From the NCBI GenBank assembly GCA_963422685.1, contig OY730442.1, forward strand, positions 1,327,085 through 1,391,084: a stretch of DNA of 64,000 nt, in the 5' to 3' direction. This DNA comes from Arenicellales bacterium. GTDB taxonomy: Bacteria; Pseudomonadota; Gammaproteobacteria; Arenicellales; Poriferihabitantaceae. The position numbers and the translations under genes are program-made. Shown here one piece after another: positions 1 through 62,715 of the stretch; the first letter of the stretch is position 1; each line of letters begins with the position of its first letter. The notes beneath the pieces were generated by a model. That model did not search any database and was not told the origin of the DNA. It was given only the letters and a program-made list of their open reading frames with translations.

Positions 1-383
1 AGAAATGTTATTGGCACCGACGAGAATTTACGTTAAATCCATTCTTACGTTACTGGAATCGGCACGAGTGACCGCCATATCTCATACTTACCGGCGGCGG
101 CCTGACGGAGAATTTGCCCCGGGTTTTGCCCGCCGGAACCAGTGCCCGGATATGGAAATCCCGCTGGGATTTACCGCCGCTGTTTGATTGGTTGCAACGA
201 CATGGAAATATTGAAGAAACAGAAATGCTCCGAACATTCAATTGCGGCATTGGCATGGCGGTTTGCGTAGATTCTGCCGATACAGACGCCGCGACAGCCT
301 GCTTGAATGAATCGGGTGAGCAGGTTTTCAGGCTGGGGGAAATTGTTGAATCCGAACACAGCGAAGTGATATTTCAGGATTAA
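1..383 (+). pseudogene. purM: purM (AIR synthetase) C-terminal part, interrupted by a +1 frameshift near nt 86
   Basis: Frame 2 (nt 5-85) reads LLAPTRIYVKSILTLLESARVTAISH. Frame 3 from nt 90 reads TGGGLTENLPRVLPAGTSARI...RTFNCGIGMAVCV...VIFQD*. Together these match the PurM C-terminal half (E. coli ...AHLTGGGFWENIPRVLP...RTFNCGVGM). Between CAT (83-85) and ACC (90-92) there are 4 nt (ACTT) where one codon is expected. The 5' part lies outside the window. Confidence 0.8.
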
Positions 384-829
384 ATGTCGAATTCTACAAT
401 CAATCTGGTAATACTCATTTCCGGCGGCGGCAGCAACCTTCAATCCATTATTGACAGCATCCGGGCCGGCTTTATGCGCATCCTGAGCAGGAATTTTATT
501 CAACGTTTCAAGGACATATTGTCAATATTCACCCCTCCTTGCTGCCCAGACACCGGGGCCTGGACACGCACAGGCGGGTTATGGATTCGGGGGATAAAAT
601 TCACGGCGCCACAGTACACTTCGTCACCGAGGAGCTCGATAACGGCCCGATAATCATACAGGCACAAATTGACGTAACCGACCAGGACAATGCCGCCAGC
701 CTGCAAAAAAAAGTATTGCAGCAGGAACATCGGATCTATCCCCGAGCCATCCAGTGGATTACCCGGGGTAAGGTGAGCTTCGATAATCCGGCGCCGGAGC
801 ACCCATGCGCCAACGCATCGGCCAGCTAA
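384..829 (+). pseudogene. purN: purN (GAR transformylase) with a roughly 65-codon internal in-frame deletion plus a frameshift
   Basis: MSNSTINLVILISGGGSNLQSIIDSIRAG joins directly to FMRILSRNFIQRFKD, whereas E. coli PurN has about 65 residues between IIDA and LAGFMRILS. After FKD (nt ~515-530) the reading frame changes to IVNIHPSLLPRHRGLDTHRRVMDSGDKIHGATVHFVTEELDNGPIIIQ...EHRIYP. Confidence 0.8.
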
Positions 830-831
830 AA

Positions 832-1542
832 ATGCCCGGAACAGGATTGATTTATACGAACAAAGCTGCGGTAATTTACCTGTTGCTTTTGCTGGGCTGG
901 CTGCCCGCCCAGGCGGCCAACCTGGAAAACCAGACGCTGCGCTATTCGGTTCAATACCGCACTCAAAATGCCGGAGAACTGGAAATAATTATCAGTGGCG
1001 AGGGTGACCGCATCAAAACCACAGTGACCAGTCATTTGAGCGCCATCGCAAAGATATTTATAGACGATTTAACCGAGGAAACCTGGTTCAGCATCCATGG
1101 AGACGGGGTGCGCGTTGAGCGAGGGCATACCCTTTCCCACGACATGCAGACTGTGAAGCGAGGTTATTTCATCGACAGACAAAATAACCGGATCCAGTAT
1201 GACGACGGTGAATCTGTGGCCGTGGAATCCATCGCTATTTTTGAGTCCGCTGCCTTTCCGCTGGTATTGATCAACAGCGACATCGGCGCTATCGAAGGGC
1301 AGATAATCCGGGAAATCAGCCCGAAACGGGTTCAGCGGTATATTTATCTGGCGCCGGAACAACAGACCCTGCCACTGCATGGTAAAAACCACCACACCTG
1401 GAAGGTCACCAGACACAAATCGGGCGACCCTTCCCGCACCGTAACGGTGTGGCTGGATCGAAAAAACCGCAACACGCCGTTGCAAATCATCTCCACGCGC
1501 AAAGGCAAAGATACCGTGATGCGGTTGATCGATAATCCCTGA
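832..1542 (+). CDS. DUF3108-like secreted protein
   Basis: Signal-peptide-like N-terminus (KAAVIYLLLLLGWLPAQAAN). It sits right after purMN, as in Pseudomonas-type genomes. The family name is from memory. Start set at the second ATG (MPGTG...) of ORF 805-1542. Confidence 0.55.
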   Translation: MPGTGLIYTNKAAVIYLLLLLGWLPAQAANLENQTLRYSVQYRTQNAGELEIIISGEGDRIKTTVTSHLSAIAKIFIDDLTEETWFSIHGDGVRVERGHTLSHDMQTVKRGYFIDRQNNRIQYDDGESVAVESIAIFESAAFPLVLINSDIGAIEGQIIREISPKRVQRYIYLAPEQQTLPLHGKNHHTWKVTRHKSGDPSRTVTVWLDRKNRNTPLQIISTRKGKDTVMRLIDNP

Positions 1543-11794: not shown

Positions 11795-12950
11795 TTAAAT
11801 CTGTATTCGGGTCCGTAACAGTTTCTGAATTCGGATGAACCCTTCTCTAACATGTCGCCCGAGAGCATGGAACCTCGTATCGTTCACAGCATCAATGGCA
11901 ATCAATTCGTCATCCGCGCAATACCAAATCGACTGACTCCCTTCTTTGTTTCCTGGGCGCACCACAAAGTGATCCCTGACTCAAACCTGCAATTTGCGTC
12001 ATGCAATCGTACTGCTCGGACCAAAATCATGGTACGGCATCGTCAAAGTGATCACCCAATATAAGTCTGGCAGCCAAGCGACTCTGGTCTGAAGCATTTT
12101 GGAGTGATTCCAGCCGGATTCGGACTCCATTGCGAAGAAAACCGGTACAGTTTCCTGCAGCATAAATTCGGACGCTGATGTCAGACATGCGTGATCAATA
12201 CAAGTTCCGTTATCACAAATTATAGATGACGCCTCGGCAATTTCGATATTTGGTTGGCTGCCATTGCCAGCCAAAACAAGGTCTGCATCAATCATTTCGC
12301 CAGAATCAAGCTCGGCACTATACCCGACCACTGGATTCATTCAATTGCACCACTGCGCCGGACTCGCGAATATCTACATTGTGACGACAATGCAGTGCCT
12401 TAAAGTAACCCGATGTTATGTTACCGGCGACTCTCTTTAAGATTCGCCTTTCCATTTCGAGCAGAATAACTCCCAGTACTGTATAGCCACCACCTATTAT
12501 CAGAAGTTTAGCCTCCTTCTTAAACGCGGGTTTAATGTATTGAATGTCGACGATATTCCTTATACCGAAGACGCCTTTTAAATCCCCTCCAATGCTTCGT
12601 GGCAGTTTTTTCGCTCTGGCGCCTGTGCGCAACACTAATTTTTCATATTCAATAACATCCTTATGTATTGGTAACAATCTGATGTTCCGAAGTCCGTATG
12701 TCACTAGCACAAGTGCCAAGTCGAGTTTCAATGCTGTTTACCCCAAACCATTCAGGTTATTGGATAGATAGTCGAGCTGTTTCTATGTCCCCTGTCAGAT
12801 AGCCTTTTGACAGAGGAGAACGTTGATAGGGAATGTATGCTCCTCCCCGATTAGCAACAGTGGGTGTCGATTTCCTGATCAACATATTGCGACACAAAAG
12901 ATGCAGCCGCTTGAGCACCAACAATAACAATGGGCAAATTTACGCGGTTA
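11795..12950 (-). pseudogene. ferredoxin-NAD(P)+ reductase (putidaredoxin-reductase type), multiple frameshifts and stops
   Basis: Pieces lie in different frames: PIVIVGAQAAASF...; YIPYQRSPLSKGYLTG; YEKLVLRTGARAKKLP...LLIIGGGYTVLG; DADLVLAGNGSQPNIEIAEAS; LIAIDAVNDTRFHALGRHV. They are collinear with the family but interrupted at least 4 times. Confidence 0.75.
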
Positions 12951-14612: not shown

Positions 14613-15875
14613 TTATTTTAGCTTTACGCTCACGGGTAGTTTTTTGATTCCACCGACAAAATTTGATCGCAAATATTGATGATCGCCTGTTTGCTTTATG
14701 GTATCTATACGGCTAACAAGTTCTTGTAGAAGGACTCTAATTTCCAGTCGCGCTAACCACATGCCGAGACATACATGTGGGCCACCCTGGCCAAATGCCA
14801 GATGTCGGTTAGGAGAACGAAGCAGGTTTAGCTCGAAAGGCTGATCAAACTGTGTGCTGTCACGATTACCTGATACAAACCAAAAAACCACCTTATCGCC
14901 TTCACGAACTTTTTTTCCGTGCAATTCGAAATCTCTTGTCGCAGTTCGGCGGAAATACATTGTTGGTGAGGCCCAGCGAATAAACTCCTCGGTTGCGATT
15001 TTCCACACTTCACCATCGTCCGATTGCAGTTGGCGCAACAAGTCTGACTTATTGGCAAGAGCATGTATTGAAGCAGACAGTGTATAGCGGGTGGTGTCAT
15101 TTCCAGCCGCCACTAACAGACAAAAGAAGTTCCGAAAATCAGAATCGCTTATTACCTTTCCCTCTGAATTGGGCTGGAGAATCAAGTGCAACACCCCATC
15201 TCTCTCTCCCTTCGCGGACTTTTCTTCCATCAATTTCTTCGCATACGTGTAGAGGTCCGCACCGGCTGGTGAGCGAAACGGCATCAATCGAAAATCATCC
15301 GTATCGCCTTTGTCCAGCAGAAATTCAGTGTATTGCGGATCAGTATTTGCGATTAGCTCGTCCCCTTTCGAGACCAGCCACTCAAGGTCGCTATCTGGAA
15401 CGCCGAGAATCTGACCCAACATTCGCATCGGTAATTGACGACTGATCATCCTGGAGGCATCGAATTCTTCCGCACTTAACGCCTGGTCGAGGATTTCATC
15501 GCACAAGCATCGTATAGTGTCCGCGAATTTAGCTATGACTGGCCTGGAGAATGCTTTCGCAACCCGCATACGTGTTTGAGTATGCTCGGGGGGATCCGTC
15601 TCCTGAAAAGTTCGCCGTGCCAGATATTCCTCATGGCTCTGGTCTTCAATGCGAATACCTCGCGCAGAGCTCAAAAGTTCCGTATTTCGATTAAATTCGA
15701 TAATGTCGTCGTAACGTGTCATGGACCAGAAGTTTTCGTATTGACCACCATCACACCAAGCCAATGGATCCTCTCTGCGCATTCTGGAAAAAGTATTATG
15801 AGGAACTCCATTTACGAACGAATCATGATCCGCCAAATCAGAAAATCCATCATCAGTAGGATTCCAAATAGTCAT
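14613..15875 (-). CDS. cytochrome P450
   Basis: 420 aa. I-helix LLVAAGNDTT, EEFIRW, and heme loop FGQGGPHVCLGMWLA. Confidence 0.9.
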   Translation of the reverse strand: MTIWNPTDDGFSDLADHDSFVNGVPHNTFSRMRREDPLAWCDGGQYENFWSMTRYDDIIEFNRNTELLSSARGIRIEDQSHEEYLARRTFQETDPPEHTQTRMRVAKAFSRPVIAKFADTIRCLCDEILDQALSAEEFDASRMISRQLPMRMLGQILGVPDSDLEWLVSKGDELIANTDPQYTEFLLDKGDTDDFRLMPFRSPAGADLYTYAKKLMEEKSAKGERDGVLHLILQPNSEGKVISDSDFRNFFCLLVAAGNDTTRYTLSASIHALANKSDLLRQLQSDDGEVWKIATEEFIRWASPTMYFRRTATRDFELHGKKVREGDKVVFWFVSGNRDSTQFDQPFELNLLRSPNRHLAFGQGGPHVCLGMWLARLEIRVLLQELVSRIDTIKQTGDHQYLRSNFVGGIKKLPVSVKLK

Positions 15876-16069
15876 ACGCCTTCATGGCTCAGTTGCTGAG
15901 TCGATTGCAATAGATGTTTATTAATATCCGGGGCAAACAAACAGGCATTAATCGGATGTTGCGCCATCATCCGGCATTTGAGACGCACAAAGGCTGGTTC
16001 AGCGAGACAGGCCCAATCATCCGGCTTTTTTATCTGCCCTTAGGGCCTTTTGCCCAGACTCCCTTGATA

Positions 16070-16597
16070 TCACGACAGATTGTCCTGGGAGTGCAGGATT
16101 ATGCGTAGCATACGGCCAAGCTCTGCCAATTCATTTTTATTAAGCCCGCGAACAAAGCCCCGCTCTAAACTATTGATCAAAGGAAACAATTTGCTCATCA
16201 AGTCGGTCCCTTTTCGGCTCAAAATTACAATTTTGCGCCGACCATCGGTGGCATGAGATTTTCGCATAGCAAACTGATGTTTTTCCAGGGTATTCACAAT
16301 TCCTGTTAGCGTACCTTTGGCAATCCCACATTCCTTTGCTAATTGATACGATTCCATTCTGCCGAACACCCATAACACCCACAGTACAGTGAACCCGGAA
16401 AAAGTCAGATTATGTTTCTGAAGAAAACGTTTCTCAGCCAGGTTGTGAAAGAGCACTGCGACCCTAAAGATATTAGATATCGCTGCCATTGCATCTACAT
16501 CCAGGTCAAAATCCTTTACATGGGTTGTGGCAATTCGTTCCTGGATGGTTTTCGAGTCATCCCGGTCTTTACTCGACACGCACCTAACCCACTTCAA
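16070..16597 (-). CDS. MarR-family transcriptional regulator
   Basis: 175 aa. wHTH region SYQLAKECGIAKGTLTGIVNTLEKHQFAMRKSHATDGRRKIVILSRKG. Confidence 0.8.
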   Translation of the reverse strand: MKWVRCVSSKDRDDSKTIQERIATTHVKDFDLDVDAMAAISNIFRVAVLFHNLAEKRFLQKHNLTFSGFTVLWVLWVFGRMESYQLAKECGIAKGTLTGIVNTLEKHQFAMRKSHATDGRRKIVILSRKGTDLMSKLFPLINSLERGFVRGLNKNELAELGRMLRIILHSQDNLS

Positions 16598-17393
16598 CCA
16601 AATTACGGCGTCTCAGCGTAGTACCGCTGCGCCAGGAAAACCCTACTTCTTGCCAATACCCCGCTATGTTTTCAATCGGCTCAAGCTCGGCAAGTTCTTC
16701 AACCGGGGAGTCAAATAGCTGTAGTTCAAAATCACCCCTAAAGCAACGTCCCACCTCTCCCTGGTAGGCACTCATCGTCACTAATTCGTCAAGGCTATCG
16801 CTCCCCTCGCCTTCAATAGCGGGCATCCATCGATTGTGGATCATAGGGTGGCTATTTACGAAACCAGCGTGATCACTGTCGCCCAAGATCTCAAATGTAC
16901 CGTGAATCAACTTGTGATCATAGGCCGCCACACTGGCTCCAAATCGTCCCCCTGCTGCAAGCCGGGGACCGGCCTGACCAACTGTGATTGGGCGACTGAC
17001 AAATATAGATGCTAATTTCTTTGGATAACCCTGATAGTGCCCCCGAACCATGGCATAGTCGGAATCCACCCAGATGTAAACACAGCGAGAATAGGTTTGG
17101 CCCCGATACTTGCACCGAACTACTACGAATACTTCCTTGTATTGACTTCGTGCCGGATCGAGAATTTCGCTATAGTCGTCCCGGCAGTTTTGCCAATCTG
17201 CCCATATTATGGCCACTGCACCAGGGTCATCATCTGCCGGCTCGAAGTAATCGGGCAGTAAATCTACAACCCGATCTACATGGGTTCGATATTCCATGGT
17301 CAGCATTGTGCCTGAGTAATGCCATGGGGTATCCGGTACCAGCGATGATTTACCTGTCGCTGAACGTGGAAACATGAAGCCTCTAAGTGACAT
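16584..17393 (-). CDS. acetoacetate decarboxylase (ADC)-family protein
   Basis: 269 aa. N-terminus FPRSATGKSSLVPDTPWHYSGTMLTMEYRT and overall length are typical of the ADC-like family. Overlaps the MarR start by 14 nt. Confidence 0.6.
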   Translation of the reverse strand: MSLRGFMFPRSATGKSSLVPDTPWHYSGTMLTMEYRTHVDRVVDLLPDYFEPADDDPGAVAIIWADWQNCRDDYSEILDPARSQYKEVFVVVRCKYRGQTYSRCVYIWVDSDYAMVRGHYQGYPKKLASIFVSRPITVGQAGPRLAAGGRFGASVAAYDHKLIHGTFEILGDSDHAGFVNSHPMIHNRWMPAIEGEGSDSLDELVTMSAYQGEVGRCFRGDFELQLFDSPVEELAELEPIENIAGYWQEVGFSWRSGTTLRRRNLVEVG

Positions 17394-17550
17394 TAATGAT
17401 TTCTCCTGAATAAAACTAACGGTCTGCTGAGTTGGTTATCACTATCAATTCCCAGTTTTCAGCGGATTGAAAGTAAGGTAGTATAATATTGTTAGCTCCC
17501 TAACGAAATCAAGTGCCAATATAATTGCTTTATAACTCCCAGAATAATTT

Positions 17551-18432
17551 ATGAGTGAATATCGACGAATACTACTGGACGGCTACCCTACAGTGGTTCA
17601 GCGTGACGAAAACGAGCTGGTAGCAAATGACGGTCGGCGTATCTCTATGCAAAAAGCAATTCATCTTGCACCCGTAGAGCCACGAAAAATTATCTGTGTT
17701 CATCTTAACTACAAAAGTCGTGTGGATGAATACATGACCAAACTGCCGGCACATCCCACCTATTTTCATAAACCAGTAACGGCGCTAAGTGGTCATGGTG
17801 GGAATGTAGTGCGACCCAAACGATGCGAATGGCTCAACTACGAGGGAGAAATCGCCATTGTTATGGGGCGTTATTGTCGAAATATCAGTCCAGATGAAGC
17901 CAGTGGGTATATTGCTGGTTACACTGTAGCCAATGATTATGGACTACACGATTTTCGGGATACCGATGCCGGGTCGATGCTTAGGGTGAAAGGATCTGAT
18001 ACCTTGTGTCCTGTTGGTCCCGCATTGGTTACTGACTGGGATTTTCGAAACAAATGGATCCGAACATCGGTCAATGGCCAGATCAAGCAAGATGGAAATA
18101 CCAATGAGATGGAATGGGACATGCACTACCTTGTTGCCGATATTGCAAGAAATATTACCTTGGAGCCTGGAGATATTCTGTTATCAGGCACTCCCGCCAA
18201 CAGCCGCCCTGTTCAGCCCGGAGATATAGTAACGGTCGAGGTGGAAGGCCTGGGAGCTCTGACCAATACAATTGTTGAAGGACCCACCCCTATTCGTGCA
18301 GATGTCGGCCATCAACCCATGACGACAGAAGAAGTAATATCAACAGCCATGGGGGGTGAATGGGAATTTCGCGGTATTCGCGCCCCACAAGGACCAGGTT
18401 CGGCTCATTACAAAAGCAGGTTGGATGATTAA
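17551..18432 (+). CDS. fumarylacetoacetate hydrolase (FAH)-family hydratase/decarboxylase/isomerase
   Basis: KIICVHLNYKS, LNYEGEIAIVMGR, GDILLSGTPAN. Has a C-terminal extension of about 50 aa. Confidence 0.8.
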   Translation: MSEYRRILLDGYPTVVQRDENELVANDGRRISMQKAIHLAPVEPRKIICVHLNYKSRVDEYMTKLPAHPTYFHKPVTALSGHGGNVVRPKRCEWLNYEGEIAIVMGRYCRNISPDEASGYIAGYTVANDYGLHDFRDTDAGSMLRVKGSDTLCPVGPALVTDWDFRNKWIRTSVNGQIKQDGNTNEMEWDMHYLVADIARNITLEPGDILLSGTPANSRPVQPGDIVTVEVEGLGALTNTIVEGPTPIRADVGHQPMTTEEVISTAMGGEWEFRGIRAPQGPGSAHYKSRLDD

Positions 18433-18486
18433 TGAATAAGACCGGCCATTAAACCCGGAGTGTATAATTAACCGCTTTCCTTTATG

Positions 18487-19956
18487 TCAGTTAACAGAAC
18501 CTTCGAGAATTTGGAGTGTTTTGAGGTCACTGTGAAAATCCAGAGCGTAGTGGCCTCCTTCTCTGCCAATCCCGCTAATTCCGTATCCACCAAATGGTGC
18601 AGAAAGATCACGAACCAGAAACGAGTTCACCCAGACTGTGCCAGCCCGCACCGCCCGTCCCACTCTTTCCGCTCGCTCGGCATTTGACGTATAAATAATC
18701 CCGGAAAGGCCATATTCGGTGCTGTTCGCCAAACTAACACCTTCGGACTCTTCATCAAATGTTTGTAAGGTCAGAACAGGTCCAAAAATTTCTCGTTGCA
18801 CCACTTCAGAATCGTTCGAAACTGACTCGATCAATGTAGGTTTGTACCATAGTTTTTCTGACCAAAATCGTTCTCCACCGAATACCAGGCGACCGCCATT
18901 TTGCTTCGCCCTCCCAACAAATCCTTCCACTCGCTCAAGATGCTGCGGATGGATGGCTGCGCACAGGGTAGTGTCTGCATTGCGACTATCTCCAGCGATA
19001 TGTTGATCAGTGTGATAAATAAGTCGATCCAGAAATTCTGCCCTGATTGAAGATTCCACGAGTAATCGTGTACCGGCAAGACACACTTGACCTGAATCCT
19101 CAAATTGCCCTGCCGCCCTTTTGGCTGCAGCATCGATATCGGCATCGGCAAACACGATGAGCGGGCCCTTACCACCAAGTTCTGCGGTAAATGGGACAAT
19201 ATTCTGTGCTGCAGACATCCCAATATGCCTCGCTGTCTGCGGCGAACCAGTAAAAGATATACGACGTATACGGGGATCTGATGCCAGTGCAGCGCCCACT
19301 TCAGCTCCATATCCCTGCACCACATTAAAAGCGCCTGGGGGAAATCCGGCTTCGTTAATCAGGTCTGCAAGTAAACTTGCGGAAAGTGGAGACCATTCAG
19401 CAGGTTTCAGGATTACCGAGTTTCCGGCCGCCAGTGCTGGAGCCAGCTTCCAGGTTGACAGCATAAATGGCGCATTCCAGGGAGTTATGATCACTGCGGG
19501 CCCGGCAGGGTCGCGGATTACCCGGTTGACCGTACCCTTTGAACTCCAGCAACGTTCTGAGTATTGCGCTACTAATTCAGCATAATTTCTGAAGTTGAGC
19601 GCACCTCGCGGTACCAGACGAAGTCGTAAACTTTCCAGCAACATTGCCATATCAAGGCATTCGACTAATGCAATATCTTCAGCATTGGCGTCAATCAGAT
19701 TGGCCAATTTAAATAGCGTATCAATTCGCTCTTGTTGGCTCACGCCAGACCAATCCTTAAATCCGCGAGTTGCGGCAGTGACAGCAAGATCGGCTGTTTC
19801 AGCATCGCCTCGAGATACATCTGCCAACTTCATATCCCAGTCCATAGGTGATCGCACCTCGAAACTTTCATCTGACAGAACCCGTTCACCACCTATAAAG
19901 TGCCCCGGGGATACCGACACGCCGTGAACGTCGATTCGGTCTGATTGAATTGTCAT
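18487..19956 (-). CDS. NAD(P)-dependent aldehyde dehydrogenase (hydroxymuconic-semialdehyde / CHMS dehydrogenase-like)
   Basis: 489 aa with FTAELGGKGP and catalytic Cys in DSGQVCLAGTRLLVE. Confidence 0.85.
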   Translation of the reverse strand: MTIQSDRIDVHGVSVSPGHFIGGERVLSDESFEVRSPMDWDMKLADVSRGDAETADLAVTAATRGFKDWSGVSQQERIDTLFKLANLIDANAEDIALVECLDMAMLLESLRLRLVPRGALNFRNYAELVAQYSERCWSSKGTVNRVIRDPAGPAVIITPWNAPFMLSTWKLAPALAAGNSVILKPAEWSPLSASLLADLINEAGFPPGAFNVVQGYGAEVGAALASDPRIRRISFTGSPQTARHIGMSAAQNIVPFTAELGGKGPLIVFADADIDAAAKRAAGQFEDSGQVCLAGTRLLVESSIRAEFLDRLIYHTDQHIAGDSRNADTTLCAAIHPQHLERVEGFVGRAKQNGGRLVFGGERFWSEKLWYKPTLIESVSNDSEVVQREIFGPVLTLQTFDEESEGVSLANSTEYGLSGIIYTSNAERAERVGRAVRAGTVWVNSFLVRDLSAPFGGYGISGIGREGGHYALDFHSDLKTLQILEGSVN

Positions 19957-20099
19957 AATAACAATTGAACTTTGAGTCTGATTTGGAGAATGCGATGAAT
20001 ATTGTTTGGTTGCAAACGATTTATTCCGATGATAAGCTTCTGTGATAAAAAGTCAATTGCAACAACTCAAATTCTAAACCATGGGAGATTCTTTGAAAC

Positions 20100-20972
20100 A
20101 TGGGTGATATCCTGGGCGCAGGTTTTCTGTCTCATGCACCAACTATCATGTTCCCGCAAGAACTTCGGTATGCAATTAATGCGGGCCGTGAAATCAGTTT
20201 AGTACCGGGGTTGAACAGGCTGCGCACCGAAGTTCTAAACGTCTTGAACCCTGATGTTGTGCTGTTGTTCGACACGCACTGGTTTACAACAGTCGAATTT
20301 GTCATAACCTCACATGCTCGCAGAAACGGAATCTACACTTCGGAAGAGCTTCCTCGAGGCATGGCACAGATTCCCTATGATATGAAAGGTGACCCCGCGT
20401 TTGCGAAATTGGTATGCGACCAGGTCAACACCAGCGGGGTTCGTTGTCATGCAAGCGAAGACCCGTGTCTGCCGATCCACTACCCGACTATCAACATTGC
20501 CCACTATATTAATGCTGGTGAATCCTGGGTTTCTATGGGGATTTGCCAAACGGCGCAAGACCACAATTTTCTCACTGTTGGTAAAAGCATAGCCGAGGCG
20601 ATAAAGCAATCAGACAAGCGTATCGTATTAGTCGCCAGCGGCGGAATGAGCCATCGATTCTGGCCGCTTGACCAGCTTGAACAACATGAAACCTCAGATC
20701 CAGAGCACATTTTTACCTTGGAGGCCCGCGCCGCTGACGAGCAGCGTCTGAAGTGGTGGCAAGCCGGCAAACACGCATCCGTTATAGATACTATGCACGA
20801 ATACCGCCAATACGGCCCTGAAGGCAAGTTCGGCCACTATCTAATGATGATCGGTGCACTGGGCGGCAGAGACTGCACAGCCAGGGGCAGGCTATTCAGT
20901 GAATATGAAAATGCTACGGGGACCGGGCAGGTTCATGTCTGGTTTGACCAGCCTGAAAATGGGTGGATATAG
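20100..20972 (+). CDS. LigB-type (class III) extradiol dioxygenase, homoprotocatechuate 2,3-dioxygenase (HpaD/HpcB)-like
   Basis: FDTHWF, IYTSEELP, LVASGGMSHRFWP, and ATGTGQVHVWF parallel E. coli HpcB (FDTHWL, VYTSNELP, LASGSLSHRF, SSGTGQVNAVF). Confidence 0.8.
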   Translation: MGDILGAGFLSHAPTIMFPQELRYAINAGREISLVPGLNRLRTEVLNVLNPDVVLLFDTHWFTTVEFVITSHARRNGIYTSEELPRGMAQIPYDMKGDPAFAKLVCDQVNTSGVRCHASEDPCLPIHYPTINIAHYINAGESWVSMGICQTAQDHNFLTVGKSIAEAIKQSDKRIVLVASGGMSHRFWPLDQLEQHETSDPEHIFTLEARAADEQRLKWWQAGKHASVIDTMHEYRQYGPEGKFGHYLMMIGALGGRDCTARGRLFSEYENATGTGQVHVWFDQPENGWI

Positions 20973-21042
20973 AATTGGAAACAAAATTATCAAGCTAATA
21001 TTTTTACTTCATCAACGTCGTATATAAACCATTGGAGATATC

Positions 21043-21975
21043 ATGAAAAAGCGACTACTAACTTTATTTGTCAGCCTTGTGATGCTCGTGCCGGCGGCAC
21101 AGGCACAATACCCTGAAAAACCGGTTTCCTTCGTGGTTCCCTGGCCGCCAGGAGATCTTGAAGATGTAATTACACGAATGATTGCAGAAGAGTTTCAGGA
21201 AACTTACGGTGTCGCAGCCGCGGTTGTTAATAAACCTGGCGGTGGCGGAGGCCCATTCCCGGGAGCTGTTGAGGTGGCCAATGCGCCAGCAGATGGCTAC
21301 ACCGTAGGATCTTTCATCATCGCAGTACCGACAATTGGACCAAATATCGGTATCCCGGAGTTAAACCCAAATCCGTTCGAGCCTCTCGGTAATTTCCTGA
21401 CCTATCCATTCGTTATTGCCGCTGGCGCAAATGCTCCTTACGAGGATATCCAAGGCCTGGCAAACCATGCCCAAAACAATGATGTAGCACTTGGACATTT
21501 TGGTGCACCTTTGATACCAACACGGGTGACAATGGCACTAGCCAAAAAAATGGGATTTAACTTCGACTCTGACGCGGCGTTTGATGTGCTGGATTGCAAT
21601 TCCCTGGCATCTGGCGATGTAGATGTCATAAACACTACGTTACAACTGATCCTGCCCTGCCTGGATAAGGTTAAAATTCTTGCCTCAGTCGGAGCTGAAC
21701 GTATTGGTTTGACACCAGACGTTCCAACAGTCACGGAAATTGTACCTGAGTTAAATATCGCTTTATGGAATGGATTATTTGTGCATAAAGACACCCCTTC
21801 TGACGCGCGAGAAAAAATCATTGCTATAGCCAAGAAAGTGGCTTTATCAGATGCGGCAAAAAAACTGGCCAGCGAAACTGGCGCACTGATCTATTGGCAG
21901 GATGTAGATGCCGCGAACGCGCAGATCAAAAGCGATATTGAGGCTTTGGGCCACCTCAACAAGATACTTGAATAA
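21043..21975 (+). CDS. tctC: tripartite tricarboxylate transporter substrate-binding protein (TctC/Bug family)
   Basis: Signal peptide followed by YPEKPVSFVVPWPPGDLEDV. 310 aa. Confidence 0.85.
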   Translation: MKKRLLTLFVSLVMLVPAAQAQYPEKPVSFVVPWPPGDLEDVITRMIAEEFQETYGVAAAVVNKPGGGGGPFPGAVEVANAPADGYTVGSFIIAVPTIGPNIGIPELNPNPFEPLGNFLTYPFVIAAGANAPYEDIQGLANHAQNNDVALGHFGAPLIPTRVTMALAKKMGFNFDSDAAFDVLDCNSLASGDVDVINTTLQLILPCLDKVKILASVGAERIGLTPDVPTVTEIVPELNIALWNGLFVHKDTPSDAREKIIAIAKKVALSDAAKKLASETGALIYWQDVDAANAQIKSDIEALGHLNKILE

Positions 21976-21991
21976 GCCTGGCTGCCCAAAC

Positions 21992-22017
21992 AAAGCGGGG
22001 CGATATCGCCCCGCTTT
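21992..22017 (+). terminator. perfect 12-bp-arm palindrome AAAGCGGGGCGA/TCGCCCCGCTTT after tctC
   Basis: GC-rich hairpin 17 nt after the tctC stop, between tctC and tctB. Likely an attenuator/terminator that raises the SBP:permease ratio. Confidence 0.55.
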
Positions 22018-22076
22018 AGTTATTGCTATCGGAAATATTTATTTGCGAATAGATTTTCCAGCAGAATTTAGATTCG

Positions 22077-22598
22077 ATGAAATCTTTTTTTGAACGCGAA
22101 CGGCGCCCAGGCGATTTTATTTTCGCTTTATTGTTTTTGGTTTTTTCAGCATTTCTACTTTCGCAGATTGGCAGCGAAACCAAATGGATAAAAGGGACGA
22201 AATTGTTCGCGCAACCCCCGTTCTGGCCCGCAGTTGGCCTGGCCGGTATGGTCTTATTTGCTACTGGACACTTTCTTGGGTCAATTTACTCTCGCAAATC
22301 CGATGGAAGGGGTTCCGAAATTCTGCTGTGGTGCAGATCACTTGAGTATGCAGCCTGGTTTATGGTTTATGTTTGGCTTGTACCCAAAGCAGGATACTTG
22401 CCAACAACAATTATATTTACACTTTTCCTGACATATCGTACAGGATACCGCAAAAGGCTAATGTTCTTTTCTGCATTGTTAGTGGCAATTGCGATTGTAG
22501 TCGTATTCAAAAGCCTGCTATCGGTCAAAATACCAGGCGCGCAGTTATATGAATACCTGCCTGACGGAATCCGAAATTTTATGCTGCTATATCTGTAG
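22077..22598 (+). CDS. tctB: tripartite tricarboxylate transporter small membrane subunit (TctB-like)
   Basis: 173 aa, four hydrophobic segments, located between tctC and tctA. Confidence 0.7.
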   Translation: MKSFFERERRPGDFIFALLFLVFSAFLLSQIGSETKWIKGTKLFAQPPFWPAVGLAGMVLFATGHFLGSIYSRKSDGRGSEILLWCRSLEYAAWFMVYVWLVPKAGYLPTTIIFTLFLTYRTGYRKRLMFFSALLVAIAIVVVFKSLLSVKIPGAQLYEYLPDGIRNFMLLYL

Positions 22599-22604
22599 AG
22601 CATC

Positions 22605-24098
22605 ATGCCGGAACTACTGCTTTCTTCAGTACAGTTATTAATGCGATGGGATGTCGTCGTTGCTCTCATAATCGGTTCCGTTGGTGGCGTCATCATCGGC
22701 GTGATACCAGGAGTTGGTGCGGCCGTGGCTATTGCCATCTTGTTACCGGCAACGTTTTCGCTTGATCCCATTGTCGGCCTTACCATATTACTCGGTATTT
22801 ATGGTTCGTCCATGTATAGCGGCGCAATTCCGGCAATCCTGATAAACACACCAGGGACTGCGGTTAATGCGCTAACGACCTACGACGGCTATCCGATGGC
22901 GCGTGATGGCAACCCTCGTCGCGCTCTTTCCTTAGCCTATTCTGCATCATTTTTTGGAGGCGTGTTTTCTGTCATTTGCCTAATACTTTTGTCACAAATA
23001 CTGGCAGTAATTGCCCCGCATTTTGGTAGCCGGGAAATATTTCTGGCGGCACTGTTGGGAATGATTTTGGTGGTTCTAGCTCACCGTGGCCAAGTTTTCG
23101 CCGCTGGAATGATGGCCTCCTTCGGAATTTTCCTGAACACTGTTGGATTAGAGCCAATCAAGTACACACGGCGATATACATTTGATCAAACCTGGCTCAC
23201 GTCAGGAGTTGATCTCATAGTAGTAGTACTTGGATTATTCGCTTTATCCCAGGCTTTCTTGCTTCTGGTGCAACAAGACGAAAGACCAAAGCCGGCCAAA
23301 GTTTCAGGCTCAATGCTTGAGGGATTGAAAGAACTGGCTTTATTTAAGCGAGTCGCAGCAGTCTCCTCATCTTTTGGCGTGATGATGGGAATGATACCGG
23401 GTGTTGGAGAATTTACCGCCCAATTTCTTTCTTACACCTATGCACAAAAGACATCCAGGAATCCGGAGAAGTTCGGCAAAGGCTCACCTGAAGGGCTGAT
23501 AGCATCAGAGGCAACCAACAACGCCGTACCAGGAGCAGCAATGATTCCATTGTTAGCCCTGGGTATTCCGGGTGAAGCACTGACCGCTATGATGCTATCC
23601 GTGTTTTATGTACATAACGTCATCCCCGGGCCCCAGCTTTTTGTCAATCAAATGGATTTCGTGATGGCACTATATATATCGCTGTTTTTGCTTAATATAA
23701 TCGTACTTATATTCTTATTGTTTGCGACCAATGGAATATTGAAGATCACTCGTATACCTACACGGTTTCTCGGGATGATGATCCTCGTGCTGGGATTTGT
23801 TGGCGTCTACTCCTTGCGCAATTCAATAACGGACTGCGCCATCGCGGCTGCTTTCGGCATCTTTGGCCTCATCGCAAAACGACTGCAACTACCCATAGTG
23901 CCCATAGTCCTGGGCATGGTTCTTGGAGGGATTATGGAAACAAAGCTTCGTTCATCCATGGCACGAGTTAAATCACCGTTAGATTTTGTCGATCGTCCTA
24001 TCTCAGCCATCATATTCTGTCTAATAATTCTAGTTATTGCTGTCCATGTATACACCTATACACGCACTTTAAACAAAAAAAGAGACTTATACGACTAA
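22605..24098 (+). CDS. tctA: tripartite tricarboxylate transporter large permease (TctA)
   Basis: 497 aa polytopic protein with GVIPGVGAAVAIAILLP and GMIPGVGEFTAQFLSY motifs. Confidence 0.85.
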   Translation: MPELLLSSVQLLMRWDVVVALIIGSVGGVIIGVIPGVGAAVAIAILLPATFSLDPIVGLTILLGIYGSSMYSGAIPAILINTPGTAVNALTTYDGYPMARDGNPRRALSLAYSASFFGGVFSVICLILLSQILAVIAPHFGSREIFLAALLGMILVVLAHRGQVFAAGMMASFGIFLNTVGLEPIKYTRRYTFDQTWLTSGVDLIVVVLGLFALSQAFLLLVQQDERPKPAKVSGSMLEGLKELALFKRVAAVSSSFGVMMGMIPGVGEFTAQFLSYTYAQKTSRNPEKFGKGSPEGLIASEATNNAVPGAAMIPLLALGIPGEALTAMMLSVFYVHNVIPGPQLFVNQMDFVMALYISLFLLNIIVLIFLLFATNGILKITRIPTRFLGMMILVLGFVGVYSLRNSITDCAIAAAFGIFGLIAKRLQLPIVPIVLGMVLGGIMETKLRSSMARVKSPLDFVDRPISAIIFCLIILVIAVHVYTYTRTLNKKRDLYD

Positions 24099-24461
24099 CT
24101 CCAGGATAGCTCATGCCAGGGCCGACTACAGACAGACAAATTCCGTACCTTCAAGAGATTAGGCGGGTGGCGGGGGACGACGATCCTATGAAGGCGCTGG
24201 AGATGTTCGTGGGAAGGATGGTTCAGACGGACCTAAGGAGAGAAGCGACAAGAACCGTCAGCAACCACGGGGCAAGATGGGGTTGGTTGAGAAGATGATT
24301 ACGACATCTGATTTCCGTCTTGCAACGGGGAACCACTGTGCCGGAGGATTGATTTTCCCCGATTCTCGTAGCAATTGCACAAATAACACTTCAACCTCTA
24401 CTTTTAGCTTTAGTTAAAAATAAGGAGATTACCGGAAGCTCGCCGCGTTTTCAGGATACAT

Positions 24462-25601
24462 TTAATAATATTCTCTGTTATAAAGTATTTCTATGATCGT
24501 ATTTTTATTCTCTGCCGGATCATAAACTGGGGTAGACACAGCCTTTGCCTTCCCGCCAAAGCCTCCTGCCAACTCCAGTTCATTGCCGGGCCTGGAGTGT
24601 TTCCGATTAATACGAGCCAAACCGAGAAATCTTCCTTCCAGATAAAGGGATAAAACTGCCATAGTCACATGTCCAATCTCTTTCCCGGAACTATATAATG
24701 GCAGCCCGTCAAACTCACTCTCACCCTCACTCGGCAGAATGATACTGATTAGGGTACGGGTGGCGTTATCCTTGGCGATTTCCAACGAAGATCTTCCCTG
24801 GAAATTAGTTTTGGAAAGATCAACGGCCCATCCCATCCTGCATTCATAAGAGGTCATGGTGTGATCGTATTCCAGTTCCGCCATAATCATTCCAGACTCT
24901 ATACGGCACATCATAACTGCTGCAGCCCCAAGCGGGAAGTAATCCATCGGGTGTGACCACCGCAAACAGCTCATCCCAAAAAAGCTTCGATTTACTTGCA
25001 GGCACTGGAATTTCGTATCCAAGCTCACCAGTAAATCCCAGACGACTTACTTGTACCGAAGTTCCAGCCATATATACATTTTCAATAAACCAATAGTATG
25101 GAAGAGAATCGTTTGATAAATCCTGTTTGGTTAGTTTTTGTAGAATTTCTCTACTTTTAGGTCCTTGTACTGATAGCTGAGCTAACTCTTCTCTCTTTTG
25201 AGCAACCGACACATTTTCTGGTCGGTGATTGTCAAGGTAATCACCTACTTGGGGATTACCCCCGAATATACGAACGTGTTCGGGGCCATGAAAAAAAACA
25301 GTGCAGTCATCAACCATCATCACTTCTTGATCGACCACAACGCCATAAACAATTTAACCTGGTTCAAGAAGGCTAATGTCTCTGAAAAAAATACTATTTA
25401 TGGTTTTCACTGCTTTGGCCTGCAATGTCCCGCTTCAACAACATCGAAAACTCCATCACTGCCACCGCACTACGAACAGCCGAGTATTCTTCCTCTGGAT
25501 CACCCCATGTCAGAAGGGGCGCATCCAGGCACGTCGATCCATTCCACCACCCCGTCGGGATATGCGGCTGCAAAAGGTGTCTGTTTAAGGTTTTGATCCA
25601 T
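24462..25601 (-). pseudogene. aminomethyltransferase (GcvT/DmdA-like, folate-binding) with several frameshifts
   Basis: N-terminus MDQNLKQTPFAAAYPDGVVEW... and EEEYSAVRSAVAVMEFS lie in different frames. Middle: LSVQGPKSREILQKL...RLGFTGELGYEI. C-terminal part: ...GHVTMAVLSLYLEGRFLGLARI... is in a third frame. Confidence 0.7.
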
Positions 25602-25631
25602 TACCGGGTCCTCACAATCTGTGTTCACAGG

Positions 25632-27805
<2,174 letters not shown>

Positions 27806-28264
27806 TTATCCGTCAAGTGACGGGGTTGTCAAAAGTATATCTAATGCCCGGATACCTATATTTGCTAACCCAGGACGACCTGCGAATGCCAGCCAAAACA
27901 CTGACTCTAAATAAACAACCAAAAACGACAAGGGAGCGCAAGGAATGATGCTTTTTATTGGATACGGAAAAAAGTACCCTGTAAACACACTGGGGGCCAG
28001 AAGATGAAGTTATTTCTTTTTGCAGTAAACTCGCAGTGCCCGGCGACCTGTTTTGAGGAACCTGTGTTATTGAAAAACAGCGCTTACATATTTGTCATGT
28101 TGCGTGTTTCAGTCTCACACGATCAATACTATGCGACCCATCGCGAAATTTGATTTTGTTGAAGCAGGTCTGCCAACAGACAGCCCACATAAAATACATA
28201 CTTTAAAAGACTCGGAATTCAACTTTAATTAACTACTATCACTTAAATATTTGATATATCAATA

Positions 28265-33804: not shown

Positions 33805-33998
33805 TTGCCGCCGAACCGTCATGACGTGATTCCCCTTGAGACCTTAGCCTGTCAGGCCGCGCCACGGAGCGCAAATTCATGTCCGCATTCCCGTCACATG
33901 CCTTGCGCGATGCTGTCGTCTTTGCGGCGGCCCTGGCCCTTAACCTTATGCCGGCATGCGGTTACAAGGACATTCCCGCAACCTCCCGGCCATTATCT
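33805..33998 (-). repeat. 194-bp direct repeat, copy 1: a solo 5'-terminal fragment of the IS remnant at 35040-36119
   Basis: 193/194 identical to 35926-36119. Identity starts at TTGCCGCCGAACCG and ends at CCATTATCT. Confidence 0.9.
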
Positions 33999-36397: not shown

Positions 36398-36474
36398 TGG
36401 TGGGCCCGGTAGGACTTGAACCTACGACCAATGGATTATGAGTCCACTGCTCTAACCAACTGAGCTACAGGCCC
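36398..36474 (-). tRNA. tRNA with CAU anticodon, probably tRNA-Ile2 (lysidine type); elongator Met not excluded
   Basis: GGGCCTG-TA-GCTC-AGTTGGTTA-GAGC-A-GTGGA-CTCATAA-TCCAT-TGGTC-GTAGG-TTCAAGT-CCTAC-CGGGCCC-A-CCA folds as a 77-nt cloverleaf. The variable and T regions resemble E. coli ileX, and it lies directly downstream of an rpoD 3' end as ileX-type genes do in E. coli and Pseudomonas. Confidence 0.9.
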
Positions 36475-36556
36475 GGTGAGGTTTTGGTGCTGTGTTTGCC
36501 GGTCGGCTTGAGTCGCGGCGATTTTATACTGGAATGTTCGAGATGACAGCTTTAAC

Positions 36557-36783
36557 TCAATTCCCGTCAAGGAAGCTCCGCAAATGATCCGACCTGCTTG
36601 GATGTCGCAATTTTCTCAATGCTTTCGCCTCTATTTGTCGAATACGTTCCCGGGTTACATCAAACTGTTTGCCAACTTCCTCCAGGGTGTGATCGGTATT
36701 CATGCCGATGCCAAACCGCATTTGCAATACTTTCGCTTCGCGTTCGGTAAGTGATTCGAGAATTTCATTCTCCGCAATCTGTC
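36557..36783 (-). pseudogene. rpoD: orphan 3' fragment of rpoD (sigma-70 region 4, last ~75 codons only)
   Basis: [71 protein letters not shown]. The frame is closed by a stop 3 codons upstream of the homology, and no rpoD 5' part follows. Confidence 0.85.
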
Positions 36784-36832
36784 GGCATCATTGCGGTGAT
36801 TTTTCCTTAAACCCGTTTTGAAACAGGAGTTG

Positions 36833-37726: not shown

Positions 37727-37956
37727 GGATGCGCGGGTTTTGGCACAGGTGACTGGTCGATCAGTGAAGTATTCCGCTGGCTCGCGTCCTTGCCAGCCGG
37801 GGCCACGGCCGCCCCGGGCAAATCGCCCACCGCTTCACCTGGCGGCAAATTGAGCGGCTGTTCCACTGCGCCCGGGAAGAGTGTGCCGAAGCCAGTCGGC
37901 GGTTAGCGGCTGCGGCCGTCGGGTTGGTTGTCGGTGAGCAGTGAATCCAGAAGCTG

Positions 37957-49554: not shown

Positions 49555-50399
49555 GATTTATTCCTGCGGTTTGATTACGCGACTATATTCTGGACGATTT
49601 TTCTGATCATCCCAAATTTGTGGTATTTGACCTTTGCGAAAGTTCCCGATGGCATGGTAAAACTCACGCTGGAAAATGGATGGGCGATTTTGTGTGCAGG
49701 TGTATCCCAATTCGGTGCTGTATAACGACACTCAGGCGTTGCAAGCGGTAATTGCCAACGAAGTGCAAATGGCGGCGCCTTCCATGGGCAAACTGAAGCC
49801 GTATACGCAGGCGTTTCGTTTGTTCAATTTGTCGTTTTTATTTTCTGACACCGATGCCGCGTTCCGCTTCCAAAACACCCCCGATGGTCACAATCTGTTG
49901 CCTTCGGTTGAAGGTATAAGGGCTGATAGGGATGGGTGGGTTACTGGCTGAACGGCATGATGCAGATGAGCGCCGACAAACCGGTTTTGTTACCCGGTGA
50001 TGTCAAAGGACAGATCTTTCGTGTACGAAAAATCCGAAGTGCTGGCGGCGCAACCACAAAACAAAAAGCATTCAAGGATGTGTATAGGGCGCTGATAACC
50101 GGGGAAGTCAATGGACAGGAAAACACCTGGTCATACATTATATACCAAGCGGTTTTTTTGAGGCGCAAGACAGCATTATCGAAACCGATCATAGTTACCT
50201 CGGTTATGTGGTTCTATTCAGCGCAAAATTTTGGAATGCGCTGACCGACAAGGACCGTGCCGAATTACAGCAGATTTTTGACGAGGTAACCGCCGCACGC
50301 AATCATCTGGTGGAAAAAATCAATAATGGTTCCCGCCAAAAAGTCATTGATGCCGGCGGGATTGTGCACGCTTTGTCGAAGATGCAGCGTGCCGCCTAG
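49555..50399 (+). pseudogene. TRAP transporter DctP-type substrate-binding protein, at least 3 frameshifts
   Basis: VQVYPNSVLYNDTQALQAVIANEVQMAAPSMGKLKPYTQAFRLFNLSFLFSD; GYWLNGMMQMSADKPVLLPGDVKGQIFRV; VNGQENTWSYI; FSAKFWNALTDKDRAELQQIFDEV. The pieces are collinear but in different frames. Confidence 0.75.
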
Positions 50400-60421: not shown

Positions 60422-61442
60422 TCATATTCGCCGCTTCAAGGGCTTTGGCTTGTTAGCTGTTTTTATATCATGAGGGCCTAAGAAACGGTCGCCATTGAAG
60501 TGAATGATGTGATCTGGATTGTCAGCAATCCACACTTCTGTTTCCCATGCAATATCAGCAGCGTTCTTTCTGAATTCGGCGCGGTCTGGAAAGGCGGTCA
60601 CATAAACCAGGCCGACCTTGCAATCTTTGAACGCTTCTTCAAGTTCAACCCAACGCTTTGGTGAAACGGGACCATGACTTGTAACAGCTTCGATTAAGAA
60701 CAGCCATTCACGGTCTTCGTCATACACAATCACATCCGGTAACTTGTCGTGTGACATTGGTGGAACGCCTAACGATTCCAGATAGTCCGCTTCCAGGAAC
60801 ATCAGCTTTCCGCCTTCGTTGCGGCTGCTGGCAGCATCACCGATGTAAAGCAGTTTTCCACCTTTACCAACGAAGCGGGAACAGAATTCGTGAACAATAT
60901 CAGCATGAAGCTGATTGTGCTTTCCGGGTGATAGCTTGATGGTTTCACCGTTAGGAAAGGTGATGGGGATTTTTTGAAGTTCAATTTGGCGTTCATACTG
61001 TGCTGTCAATTCGGTCACAGCGTCTTTGTACTCCTGAACCTTATTCTTTCCAATTACCGTCAGGGTACACCGCCAAAATGTCAAGAATTGGTTGGTTCAG
61101 TTAATAATTATTGTTTTTGCTGTTAGTGGGTCTTGCAGGGTCGTCCCGGTTACGATCAACAACACGGGCTTGTTCAAACTGGTGAAGGGTCTGGCGTCTA
61201 ATCGTTTCACGGCTATTCGGCTTGTAATCCATGCCGTATTCACTACGGATGAATTCCATAATGTTCACAGTTGGTAAAAGGGGAGCGGTAGCGGAAGCCC
61301 AACTGTCTGAAGGCTTAATGTTAGCTAATGCCAGGAACACCCATCCTGAACGGTCGTTATATTGTGCTTTTGGCAGCCCCAGTGCTGTCAAAAGCGCTTT
61401 GGCTTGTTCAAGCTTTTCTTGTTGTTGTTCGGTAAATTCCAA
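60422..61442 (-). pseudogene. BsuBI/PstI-family type II restriction endonuclease with an in-frame TAA and a frameshift
   Basis: N-domain [24 protein letters not shown]...[18 protein letters not shown]...[28 protein letters not shown]. The frame then changes to [10 protein letters not shown]...[31 protein letters not shown] (catalytic domain pattern). Confidence 0.75.
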
Positions 61443-61453
61443 GTTTCACCCCT

Positions 61454-62715
61454 TTAAATAGTGTCCATTACCCCAAGAACAGGATTGACGATCAAATCAA
61501 CTTTGTTTGTTATAACCGTCTTCAACTTTTGCGCTTGCTTGCCAATTTCTTTCACTTGTTCGCGTAAAGGGAATTTCATAACCCTGATTTCAGTTGCGTT
61601 TACCTGGGTGTTTCCTGAAATACATCTGAAATACTTGTCCATGAACGATGAATTGAATATTGCAGCAAGCCCGTATTCTTCGGTGTTCGTTAGTTTGCTA
61701 GAAGATAAGCCAATGTAATTTGTTTTGTTTCCGAATCCGATCAGTTTACAGTTATGTGTGGTGGCAAGATGAACCCCCGCGACTAAACGCCGTTTTTCAT
61801 CTTTTGAAGAAAAGCGTTTCAACAGCACGAAGGTTCCATTTTCCATTGTATGCTTTTCATGACCTTCGTTTAGCATGAAGGACACTTCCTTTTTTAGGCC
61901 GCCGGTCCATGTTGTGGTCAATGGCGTAACATTGTGTGGGCGGTATAGGGGGATCGAATTAGGCGCATTTGTGTCTTCAGTGATGTACTTGCGCGTTCGA
62001 TGTTCGACAACACGACCGGTGGAAATGAAGTAGCCAGCACCTTCAAAAGTGGTTGGGAATGTTTCGGCTTGCCTTAAAATACTGGCTTCACAGGCTGATT
62101 CGGGAATGCGGATGATTCTCTGATCATTTGAAAGGTCAATGATCAGTTCAACTGGGTATTGTTCTTCGTTAGCGTTGTTTATGCTTGTGTCACAGTCGCT
62201 TGAACGAACGGTTACCGCTTTTCGGTCTTTTCCTTTAATGAACCGGCAAATGATATTTTCTTGAAGAACCGCCGAATCATCATCTTTGAACACTTTGTCC
62301 CGGTGCTTGAAGATATGTATCAAGTCCAATACTGATTCGGTTAATAGGTACGAACGGAATCCCTTGAAGTACAAACCACTGCTGAAGCTACGGGGCGTAA
62401 TCGTTACCATCTGCCCACCATCTTTCACACAAGCCATTACAACAGCCATGAAAGAAGCGTAAATGTTGGGGTCACCGTGGAATAGGTCAGCCGCCACTTT
62501 CGCATAGGGTGAATCTGCCACGCTGTATTTGAAGTACGGCGGGTTGATCACTGACACATCAAAAGATTGAATGCTTTCATCTTTGTCGGGTCTGGCAAGA
62601 ACAAAATCTTCACAACGGATTTCATACGTGAAGGTTCCGCGTTGCTGGATGAAAGTGTTCTGAACGATCTTCAGCGTTTGTTCAAGGTTGTTGAAGCCAA
62701 CTCAATGGAGTTCCG
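61454..62715 (-). pseudogene. N6-adenine DNA methyltransferase (gamma-class, NPPY), 5'-truncated: no AdoMet motif I remains
   Basis: ...EIRCEDFVLARPDKDESIQSFDVSVINPPYFKY...GGQMVTITPRSF.... Upstream homology (VGFNNLEQTLKIVQNTF) stops at a TGA at ~62700, and composition switches to AT-rich unrelated sequence at ~62715-62730. Confidence 0.7.

Follow-up and report, generated by a model that had tools for sequence, protein, structure and literature searches.

Bacteria without de novo purine synthesis, such as Borrelia, Rickettsia, Chlamydia, Helicobacter pylori and many Mollicutes, live on salvage. In Escherichia coli and Salmonella, purM (purI) mutants need purine and thiamine, and the purN single mutant is prototrophic in the presence of purT. 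Sodalis glossinidius is the classical case of early genome erosion. Here we describe the purM-purN locus, encoding aminoimidazole ribonucleotide (AIR) synthetase and glycinamide ribonucleotide (GAR) transformylase, at the beginning of a stretch of 64,000 nt from contig OY730442.1 of a gammaproteobacterium. The whole stretch is referred to as the window. As the locus stands, its translation can yield neither PurM nor PurN in full length.

About 16% pseudogenes were found in the sponge symbiont 'Ca. Thermopylae lasonolidus' and were read as early genome reduction (PMC9600693). The decayed fraction of the window (about 9 of 52 gene loci) is comparable to this value, being a figure for 64 kb and not for a whole genome. 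Early-eroding symbionts of this type share with our locus and its surroundings a moderately large genome with many frameshifted or truncated genes among intact ones, copies of insertion sequences (IS), decayed mobile and defence genes, and broken genes that, by their look, were still functional recently. They differ from it in that host restriction is deduced here from the habitat of the relatives. The salvage-dependent bacteria resemble the outcome predicted for the window, namely the absence of AIR synthetase and a need for external purines. In those bacteria, however, the genes are gone and salvage is documented, whereas here the genes appear freshly broken and dependence is predicted. The E. 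coli and Salmonella mutants are affected in the same two enzymes but are laboratory strains, while the three lesions of the window are fixed in a genome assembled from a natural population.

We also compared the locus with those of related bacteria. A protein-guided scan of GTDB representative genomes revealed at least 80 orthologous loci, with a best identity of 71% among the matches listed. By homology the broken gene belongs to the PurM family: the closest sequences are annotated PurM proteins of Candidatus Spongiihabitans, which are sponge sulfur oxidisers (68-72% identity), followed by those of Poriferihabitaceae, Sedimenticola and similar bacteria. In the following, L-numbers designate the loci of relatives, L002 being the closest, except for L001 and L084, which are Logan contigs of the sequencing run ERR11641160. 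The order purM-purN-DUF3108 is common to L002, L003, L014, L004, L006, L007 and L008. The Candidatus Spongiihabitans/Poriferihabitaceae loci L002, L003, L005 and L014 come from sponge metagenomes and are like the window in gene order and orientation, with 68-71% identity for PurM and 65-70% for the distal part of PurN. Unlike the window, they encode an uninterrupted PurM of 349 aa and a PurN of about 203 aa. The downstream neighbours also differ, with an ABC (ATP-binding cassette) transporter in these loci versus an IclR/GMC-oxidoreductase cluster in the window. A comparison with orthologous loci had been proposed by an earlier reading of the sequence alone (the sequence-only reading), and it showed that the nearest sponge-symbiont relatives all keep purM-purN-DUF3108 intact.

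Lesions in purM and purN

The lesions were called by residue-by-residue comparison with 119 PurM and 47 PurN homologues and were above chance level. The coordinates of all features are listed in Table 1. The first 223 codons of purM precede the window, and L001 contains them in intact form. Direct translation of the proximal part present in the window gave ...LLAPTRIYVKSILTLLESARVTAISH in frame 2, with CAT at nt 83-85 closing the homologous stretch. Four nucleotides had been reported to occupy the place of the next codon (CAT-ACTT-ACC), and the codon-level comparison confirmed this. All 12 relatives compared are unshifted and show CAY-ATH/GTC-ACN (H-I/V-T-G-G-G) at this site; in L002 the sequence is CAT ATT ACC GGC GGC GG. 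The Ile is near-invariant in the alignment of 119 homologues. Since the relatives read His-Ile/Val-Thr, the lesion corresponds to a single C inserted at nt 87.

As a consequence of the insertion, the original frame ends at nt 187 and the product has 284 aa, in place of an uninterrupted frame of about 345-350 codons. This product matches the Pfam domains AIRS and AIRS_C, and the C-terminal part of the repaired PurM matches AIRS_C with an E-value of 3.4e-26. The 119 best matches to PurM were all full length (339-417 aa).

In purN, the sequence-only reading had noted the loss of about 65 codons. The deletion is genuine, and its size is exactly 63 codons (189 nt). The spacing between the motifs NLQ and FMRIL is 12 residues in the window. 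Of seven relatives for which it was determined, five, among them the four closest sponge-symbiont genomes, have 75 residues, and the remaining two have 73 and 74. A residue count in E. coli PurN also gave 75. A HMMER comparison with solved structures of E. coli GAR transformylase (2gar, 1cde and others) aligned query residues 6-32 to residues 1-27 of the chain and query residues 26-133 to residues 84-191; the last residues of the N-terminal alignment, which lie past the junction, are poorly aligned. The upstream edge of the deletion retains Ala-Gly (GCC GGC). In relatives, the sequence is ..xxG where the deletion begins upstream and ..L-A-G-F-M-R-I-L where it ends downstream, and the lost block ended with Leu-Ala-Gly in every relative (CTG GCC GGC TTT ATG in L004). 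It had been correctly recognized that two ..AG positions are joined. Judged from the sequence at the junction, the deletion likely arose between two GCCGGC (Ala-Gly) direct repeats.

The change of frame before the motif NIHPSLLP is indeed present, but it does not result from the deletion, as had been assumed, because the deletion is in frame. It is due to a separate event, the loss of one nucleotide at 509/510, about 39 nt (twelve codons) downstream of the junction. Here TTC-CAA-GGA is changed to TTCAAGGA, while the relatives have TTC CAA GGN (TTC CAA GGG in L002). The residues Asn106, His108 and Asp144 (E. coli numbering) are present in NIHPSLLP and D-x-GP, but out of frame with the start codon. 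The repaired PurN matched Formyl_trans_N (Pfam) with an E-value of 2.4e-39, only over profile positions 85-181 of 181, and the full domain with its N-terminal nucleotide-binding subdomain is not present.

Both genes classify as pseudogenes by criteria of the Lerat & Ochman type (a frameshift or less than 80% of the homologue length). For purM, homology resumes in a second frame past the lesion (tblastn). For purN, public gene callers give merely fragments of 82 aa and 96 aa, compared to 194-228 aa for the homologues (119 of 119 full-length matches listed). A natural short form of PurN was ruled out because none of these 119 homologues is shorter than 194 aa. The claim that purM and purN are both inactivated was thus borne out by the codon-level comparison with relatives.

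Table 1. Features of the purM-purN locus and decayed genes and mobile elements in the 64-kb window
Feature	Position (nt)	Strand	Remarks
purM codons 224-251 (..EMLLAPTRIYVKSILTLLESARVTAISH)	2..85	+	Original reading frame, window frame 2; translation; tblastn 100% over residues 224-251
Inserted C, CAT-ATT-ACC to CAT-ACTT-ACC	87..87	+	+1 frameshift at PurM codon 252 of 349; no homopolymer
purM distal 97 codons, (L)TGGGLTENLPRVLP...EVIFQD, stop TAA 381-383	88..383	+	Window frame 3, out of start-codon frame; translation, tblastn residues 252-349, AIRS_C
purN start and first 29 codons (MSNSTINLVILISGGGSNLQSIIDSIRAG)	384..470	+	ATG abuts the purM stop directly; aligned with E. coli GAR transformylase, starting at its residue 1
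Deletion junction GCC-GGC/TTT-ATG, at 470/471	465..476	+	63 codons (189 nt) gone, in frame; approximately E. coli PurN residues 25-87
purN codons FMRILSRNFIQRF	471..509	+	Start-codon frame kept
1-nt deletion, one C gone from TTC-CAA	509..510	+	-1 frameshift; the catalytic Asn of NIHPSLLP follows five codons later
purN distal part (QGHIVNIHPSLLPRHRGLDTH...ANASAS), stop 827-829	509..829	+	Window frame 2, out of start frame; carries catalytic Asn/His/Asp
DUF3108-like gene, intact	805..1542	+	Third gene of purM-purN-DUF3108; overlaps purN 3' end by 25 nt
Pyridine-nucleotide-disulphide oxidoreductase pseudogene	11999..12731	-	Two frames, N-terminal part missing; Pyr_redox_2 profile 97-206 and 217-266 on adjacent open reading frames (ORFs)
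GcvT-like aminomethyltransferase pseudogene	24462..25338	-	Frameshift, N-terminal 83 profile positions gone; GCV_T 84-219, then GCV_T 217-255 and GCV_T_C, on overlapping ORFs in different frames
Old Yellow Enzyme (OYE)/2,4-dienoyl-CoA-reductase-like pseudogene	25632..27618	-	Three ORFs in three frames: Oxidored_FMN 85-156, 179-330, then OYE-like and Pyr_redox_2
TRAP (tripartite ATP-independent periplasmic)-transporter DctP pseudogene	49676..50399	+	Three frames; DctP profile 27-104, 112-193, 208-270
Two IS5-like copies of 962 nt	47843-48804, 50828-51789	inverted	99% identical; transposase with DUF772 domain, its ORF split in two in each copy
IS256/Mutator-family transposase remnant	52422-52685	-	Profile positions 81-153 of 379 only
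Decayed BsuBI/PstI-type restriction-modification system	60422..62557	-	Endonuclease in two frames; BsuBI_PstI_RE_N 61101-61442, BsuBI_PstI_RE 60422-61084
Eco57I-type methylase of the BsuBI/PstI system	61454-62557	-	Eco57I profile 81-171 only; N-terminal part missing

Age of the lesions and predicted purine dependence

The repaired PurN showed no deviation at columns that are conserved in at least 95% of the 47 homologues. The repaired PurM showed five deviations (G41E, T74S, V102A, Y199F and S200A), which is the highest number among 120 sequences; the next homologues had 5, 5, 5, 4 and 4. The surviving codons of purM and purN still look selected, and the inactivation therefore appears recent when compared with the 30% divergence that separates the nearest relatives.

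We consider it highly probable that purM-purN was inactivated by three recent spontaneous mutations as part of an ongoing genome erosion in a sponge-associated gammaproteobacterium, with a predicted dependence on external purines and thiamine. The source is a 2.9-Mb chromosome of an uncultured gammaproteobacterium whose kin are sulfur-oxidising sponge symbionts (Candidatus Spongiihabitans/Poriferihabitaceae). The three hits, a 1-nt insertion in purM, the 189-nt in-frame deletion in purN and a 1-nt deletion in purN, would be independent of each other, and the larger deletion may be explained by slippage or illegitimate recombination between the two GCCGGC repeats. Relaxed selection in a nutrient-rich host, together with drift, could have allowed the lesions to become fixed. 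The bacterium may be obligately associated with its host, as could be suggested by the sponge-metagenome origin of the nearest relatives and by its occurrence in a single sample.

PurN converts GAR to formylglycinamide ribonucleotide in step 3 of the synthesis of inosine monophosphate (IMP), and PurM converts formylglycinamidine ribonucleotide to AIR in step 5. The two lesions had been described as the loss of two consecutive purine steps; this does not hold for the textbook pathway, in which the genes, but not the steps, are neighbours. Loss of purN is tolerated and usually harmless where purT exists, as known from E. coli genetics. For the loss of purM, we know of no bypass. Because purT often covers the loss of purN, it is the purM lesion alone that carries the argument for auxotrophy. 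Without AIR synthetase, de novo IMP synthesis would halt at step 5. AIR is also the substrate of ThiC and the precursor of the pyrimidine moiety of thiamine, as established by classical E. coli and Salmonella genetics. Since AIR feeds ThiC, the synthesis of hydroxymethylpyrimidine (HMP) would be blocked along with it. The cell would then depend on the sponge or on neighbouring microbes for purines and, probably, for thiamine or HMP. The sequence-only reading had concluded that the losses imply either purine salvage from a host or community or a second copy elsewhere; a purine dependence of this kind is plausible. No phosphoribosyltransferase was found among the window ORFs that were scanned for domains.

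On an unlikely reading that has to be considered, the lesions exist but the bacterium still synthesizes purines, with purT replacing purN and a second purM or an intact allele residing on another replicon. In favour of it, the redundancy of purN and purT in E. coli is firmly established, the analysis covered 64 kb out of 2.9 Mb, the genome is not a small one, and the majority of the window's genes are intact. A tblastn-type search, however, found neither purT nor a further copy of purM or purN in the rest of the window, and purT was also absent from the 81 loci of relatives that were searched for a close query. Furthermore, purT would rescue step 3 only, and bacteria seldom carry two purM genes. 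Of the 120 best matches to PurM, the truncated PurM of this locus (P0001) was the only one on the 2,900,423-bp contig, which argues against a second copy of at least about 64% identity. If purine synthesis were kept by such means, the bacterium would not be auxotrophic and the breakage of purMN would be metabolically meaningless. If, on the other hand, the purM lesion is uncompensated, the bacterium would make neither its own purines nor the thiamine pyrimidine and would draw both from within the sponge. This would represent a concrete metabolic dependency in a clade of sponge symbionts whose relatives are all prototrophic at purMN, and an unusually recent case of such a dependency arising. 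Pseudogenised biosynthetic genes are a familiar pattern in host-associated bacteria, and the finding marks this genome as a candidate for genome-wide analysis of pseudogenes and auxotrophy.

Allelic variants, artefacts and recoding

The window was compared to contigs and proteins in public collections. All three purMN lesions are repeated in L001 (12,793 nt), which shares 11,170 nt with the window without a mismatch. The second Logan contig, L084 (15,092 nt), equals positions 14,640-29,731 of the window, also with 0 mismatches, and carries the GcvT and OYE lesions. In total, 26,262 nt agreed without any mismatch, which places the lesions in the DNA of the organism at the level of contigs. Among about 15 billion public proteins, the only matches with 100% identity were the 284-aa truncated PurM and the PurN fragments of 82 aa and 96 aa, which sit on the 2,900,423-bp contig and on the Logan contig. 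No intact near-identical allele of purM or purN was present in this collection.

These results bear on the view that the assembled haplotype is a defective 'cheater' lineage that lives beside an intact strain of the same species, so that the species as such is not auxotrophic. Minor alleles can be hidden by a metagenome consensus and by bubble-popped k-mer contigs, and the lesions appear very recent. Nevertheless, we regard this heterogeneity as very unlikely: the collected proteins, among them those of the Logan assembly of ERR11641160, included no intact allele of more than 72% identity (PurM) or 70% identity (PurN), the Logan contig is unbroken through purMN, and the organism was detected in one sample only.

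The probability that the lesions result from sequencing or assembly, as indel errors in a low-coverage long-read metagenome bin with the 189-nt gap representing a collapsed or mis-joined region, is very small. Every gene split seen in the window is a change of frame, as is typical for long-read errors. The related genomes derive from PacBio HiFi/metaMDBG sponge metagenomes, some of them with amplified ultra-low-input libraries. However, the lesions are included in the stretches that are identical to the independently built k-mer contigs of ERR11641160, and none of the three purMN lesions is located at a homopolymer of 5 or more nt; few of the other frame changes in the window lie near one. About nine frameshifts per 64 kb also far exceed the consensus error rates of HiFi sequencing. 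The sister genomes L003 and L014, which were produced by the same Sanger HiFi/metaMDBG pipeline, have an uninterrupted purM-purN-DUF3108. Base-calling errors do not account for an in-frame loss of 189 nt with a 6-nt repeat at its boundary, nor for the N-terminal truncations elsewhere in the window. The sequence-only reading had come to the same conclusion for the deletion, and its size and its presence in the Logan contig support this.

We also considered on which platform the Logan contigs were sequenced. ERR11641160 belongs by its number to the Wellcome Sanger Tree-of-Life batch. The documented runs ERR11641121 to ERR11641156 are all Illumina runs (RNA-seq or Hi-C), and ERR11641069-083 are the batch's PacBio runs. 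Because the neighbouring run numbers are Illumina, the agreement between the window and the Logan contigs probably spans two sequencing platforms, as judged by accession numbering. Based on the 100% identity to two Logan contigs and the non-homopolymer context we dismissed an assembly artefact, and by this sequence agreement the purMN lesions appear to be genuine and not sequencing artefacts.

Programmed frameshifting that restores PurM, or fragments that form active enzymes, has practically no probability and was excluded: nothing direct speaks for it, other than that the distal parts of purM and purN are still open and conserved, but nt 83-92 and 505-512 contain no slippery sequence and no run of 5 or more nt, the shift is absent in all relatives, so that the site is not a conserved recoding site, the break in PurM lies inside the AIRS_C domain, and 63 core residues are also missing from the N-terminal fold of PurN, with no homologue shorter than 194 aa.

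Several observations weigh against an inactivation of purMN by recent mutations during genome erosion, or limit what can be concluded from it. The five substitutions in PurM are not significantly above those of other lineages, so that 'recent' is relative. Every examined gene split is a change of frame, with no nonsense codon among about nine lesions, and this fits a systematic indel artefact as well. The clustering of lesions within genes is weakly non-random (simulation, P ~0.15 for at least two genes with at least two hits and 0.016 for at least three genes). The platform of ERR11641160 is deduced and not documented, and if the run is the same read set as that of the assembly, the agreement excludes assembler error only. 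Finally, the physiological consequence is deduced from 64 kb plus about 1.6 kb of upstream sequence of a 2.9-Mb chromosome.

A more specific and rather doubtful version of the erosion scenario would be a sponge sulfur-oxidiser lineage caught very shortly after it began to depend on its host or community for purines and thiamine pyrimidine, with purMN hit three times while its codons are still pristine, and perhaps with an indel-biased mutator state (e.g., a repair defect) speeding the erosion. A mutator state is considered because about nine frame changes but no nonsense codon are found in 64 kb.

Decay elsewhere in the window

At least seven genes besides purM and purN are decayed in the same 64 kb, and several IS copies are present (Table 1). 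This broader pattern had been missed by the sequence-only reading. The purMN lesions are not a special event, and ordinary early genome erosion is the wider and better-supported reading. Most other genes of the window are intact, including those for a GMC oxidoreductase, a P450, a sulfatase, TctABC, UbiB/UbiE and HemB. A lesion spectrum that consists of indels only is unusual for bacterial pseudogenes.

The two IS5-like copies bracket about 2 kb with the DctP pseudogene, which is a layout like that of a composite transposon. The region at 58-64 kb, in which the restriction-modification system is located, is poor in GC (37-44% versus 46-58% elsewhere in the window). This low GC content suggests an island of horizontal origin that is in the course of erosion.

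At the purMN locus, the assignment of the third gene to DUF3108 is weak (7.4e-05, under the Pfam cut-off). No Rfam family, e.g., a riboswitch, was detected at purMN. Two antisense ORFs (171-503 and 500-802) are without a Pfam match and were taken as shadow ORFs. Upstream of purM (positions 1-770 of L001) we observed the end of a large protein with repeat units of about 95 aa (..NVTITPRSDT.IA..KPTTLTFT..NW...Q.VTVTGV.D..A..), by its look a Calx-beta/cadherin-like surface protein.

A tRNA-Met gene (CAT, 36398-36474) adjoins phage-like genes for a PAPS_reduct-domain protein (36833-37726) and a DUF1799 protein (37957-38412). The region 36398-38412 probably represents either what is left of a prophage or an island that was inserted at the tRNA. 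A direct repeat of 194 nt with 99% identity (33805-33998 and 35926-36119, 2,121 nt apart) lies on either side of a gene for a glycosyltransferase (34087-35037); candidates for this repeat are a miniature inverted-repeat transposable element, an att-like repeat or a duplicated gene end. An intact ORF of 1,059 aa encodes a putative RND (resistance-nodulation-division) efflux pump, as judged by eye. In the longest ORF for HemB (46368-47705, minus strand), the ALAD domain starts at residue 118 and is preceded by an N-terminal extension of 117 aa without domain matches, which is probably due to an upstream in-frame start.

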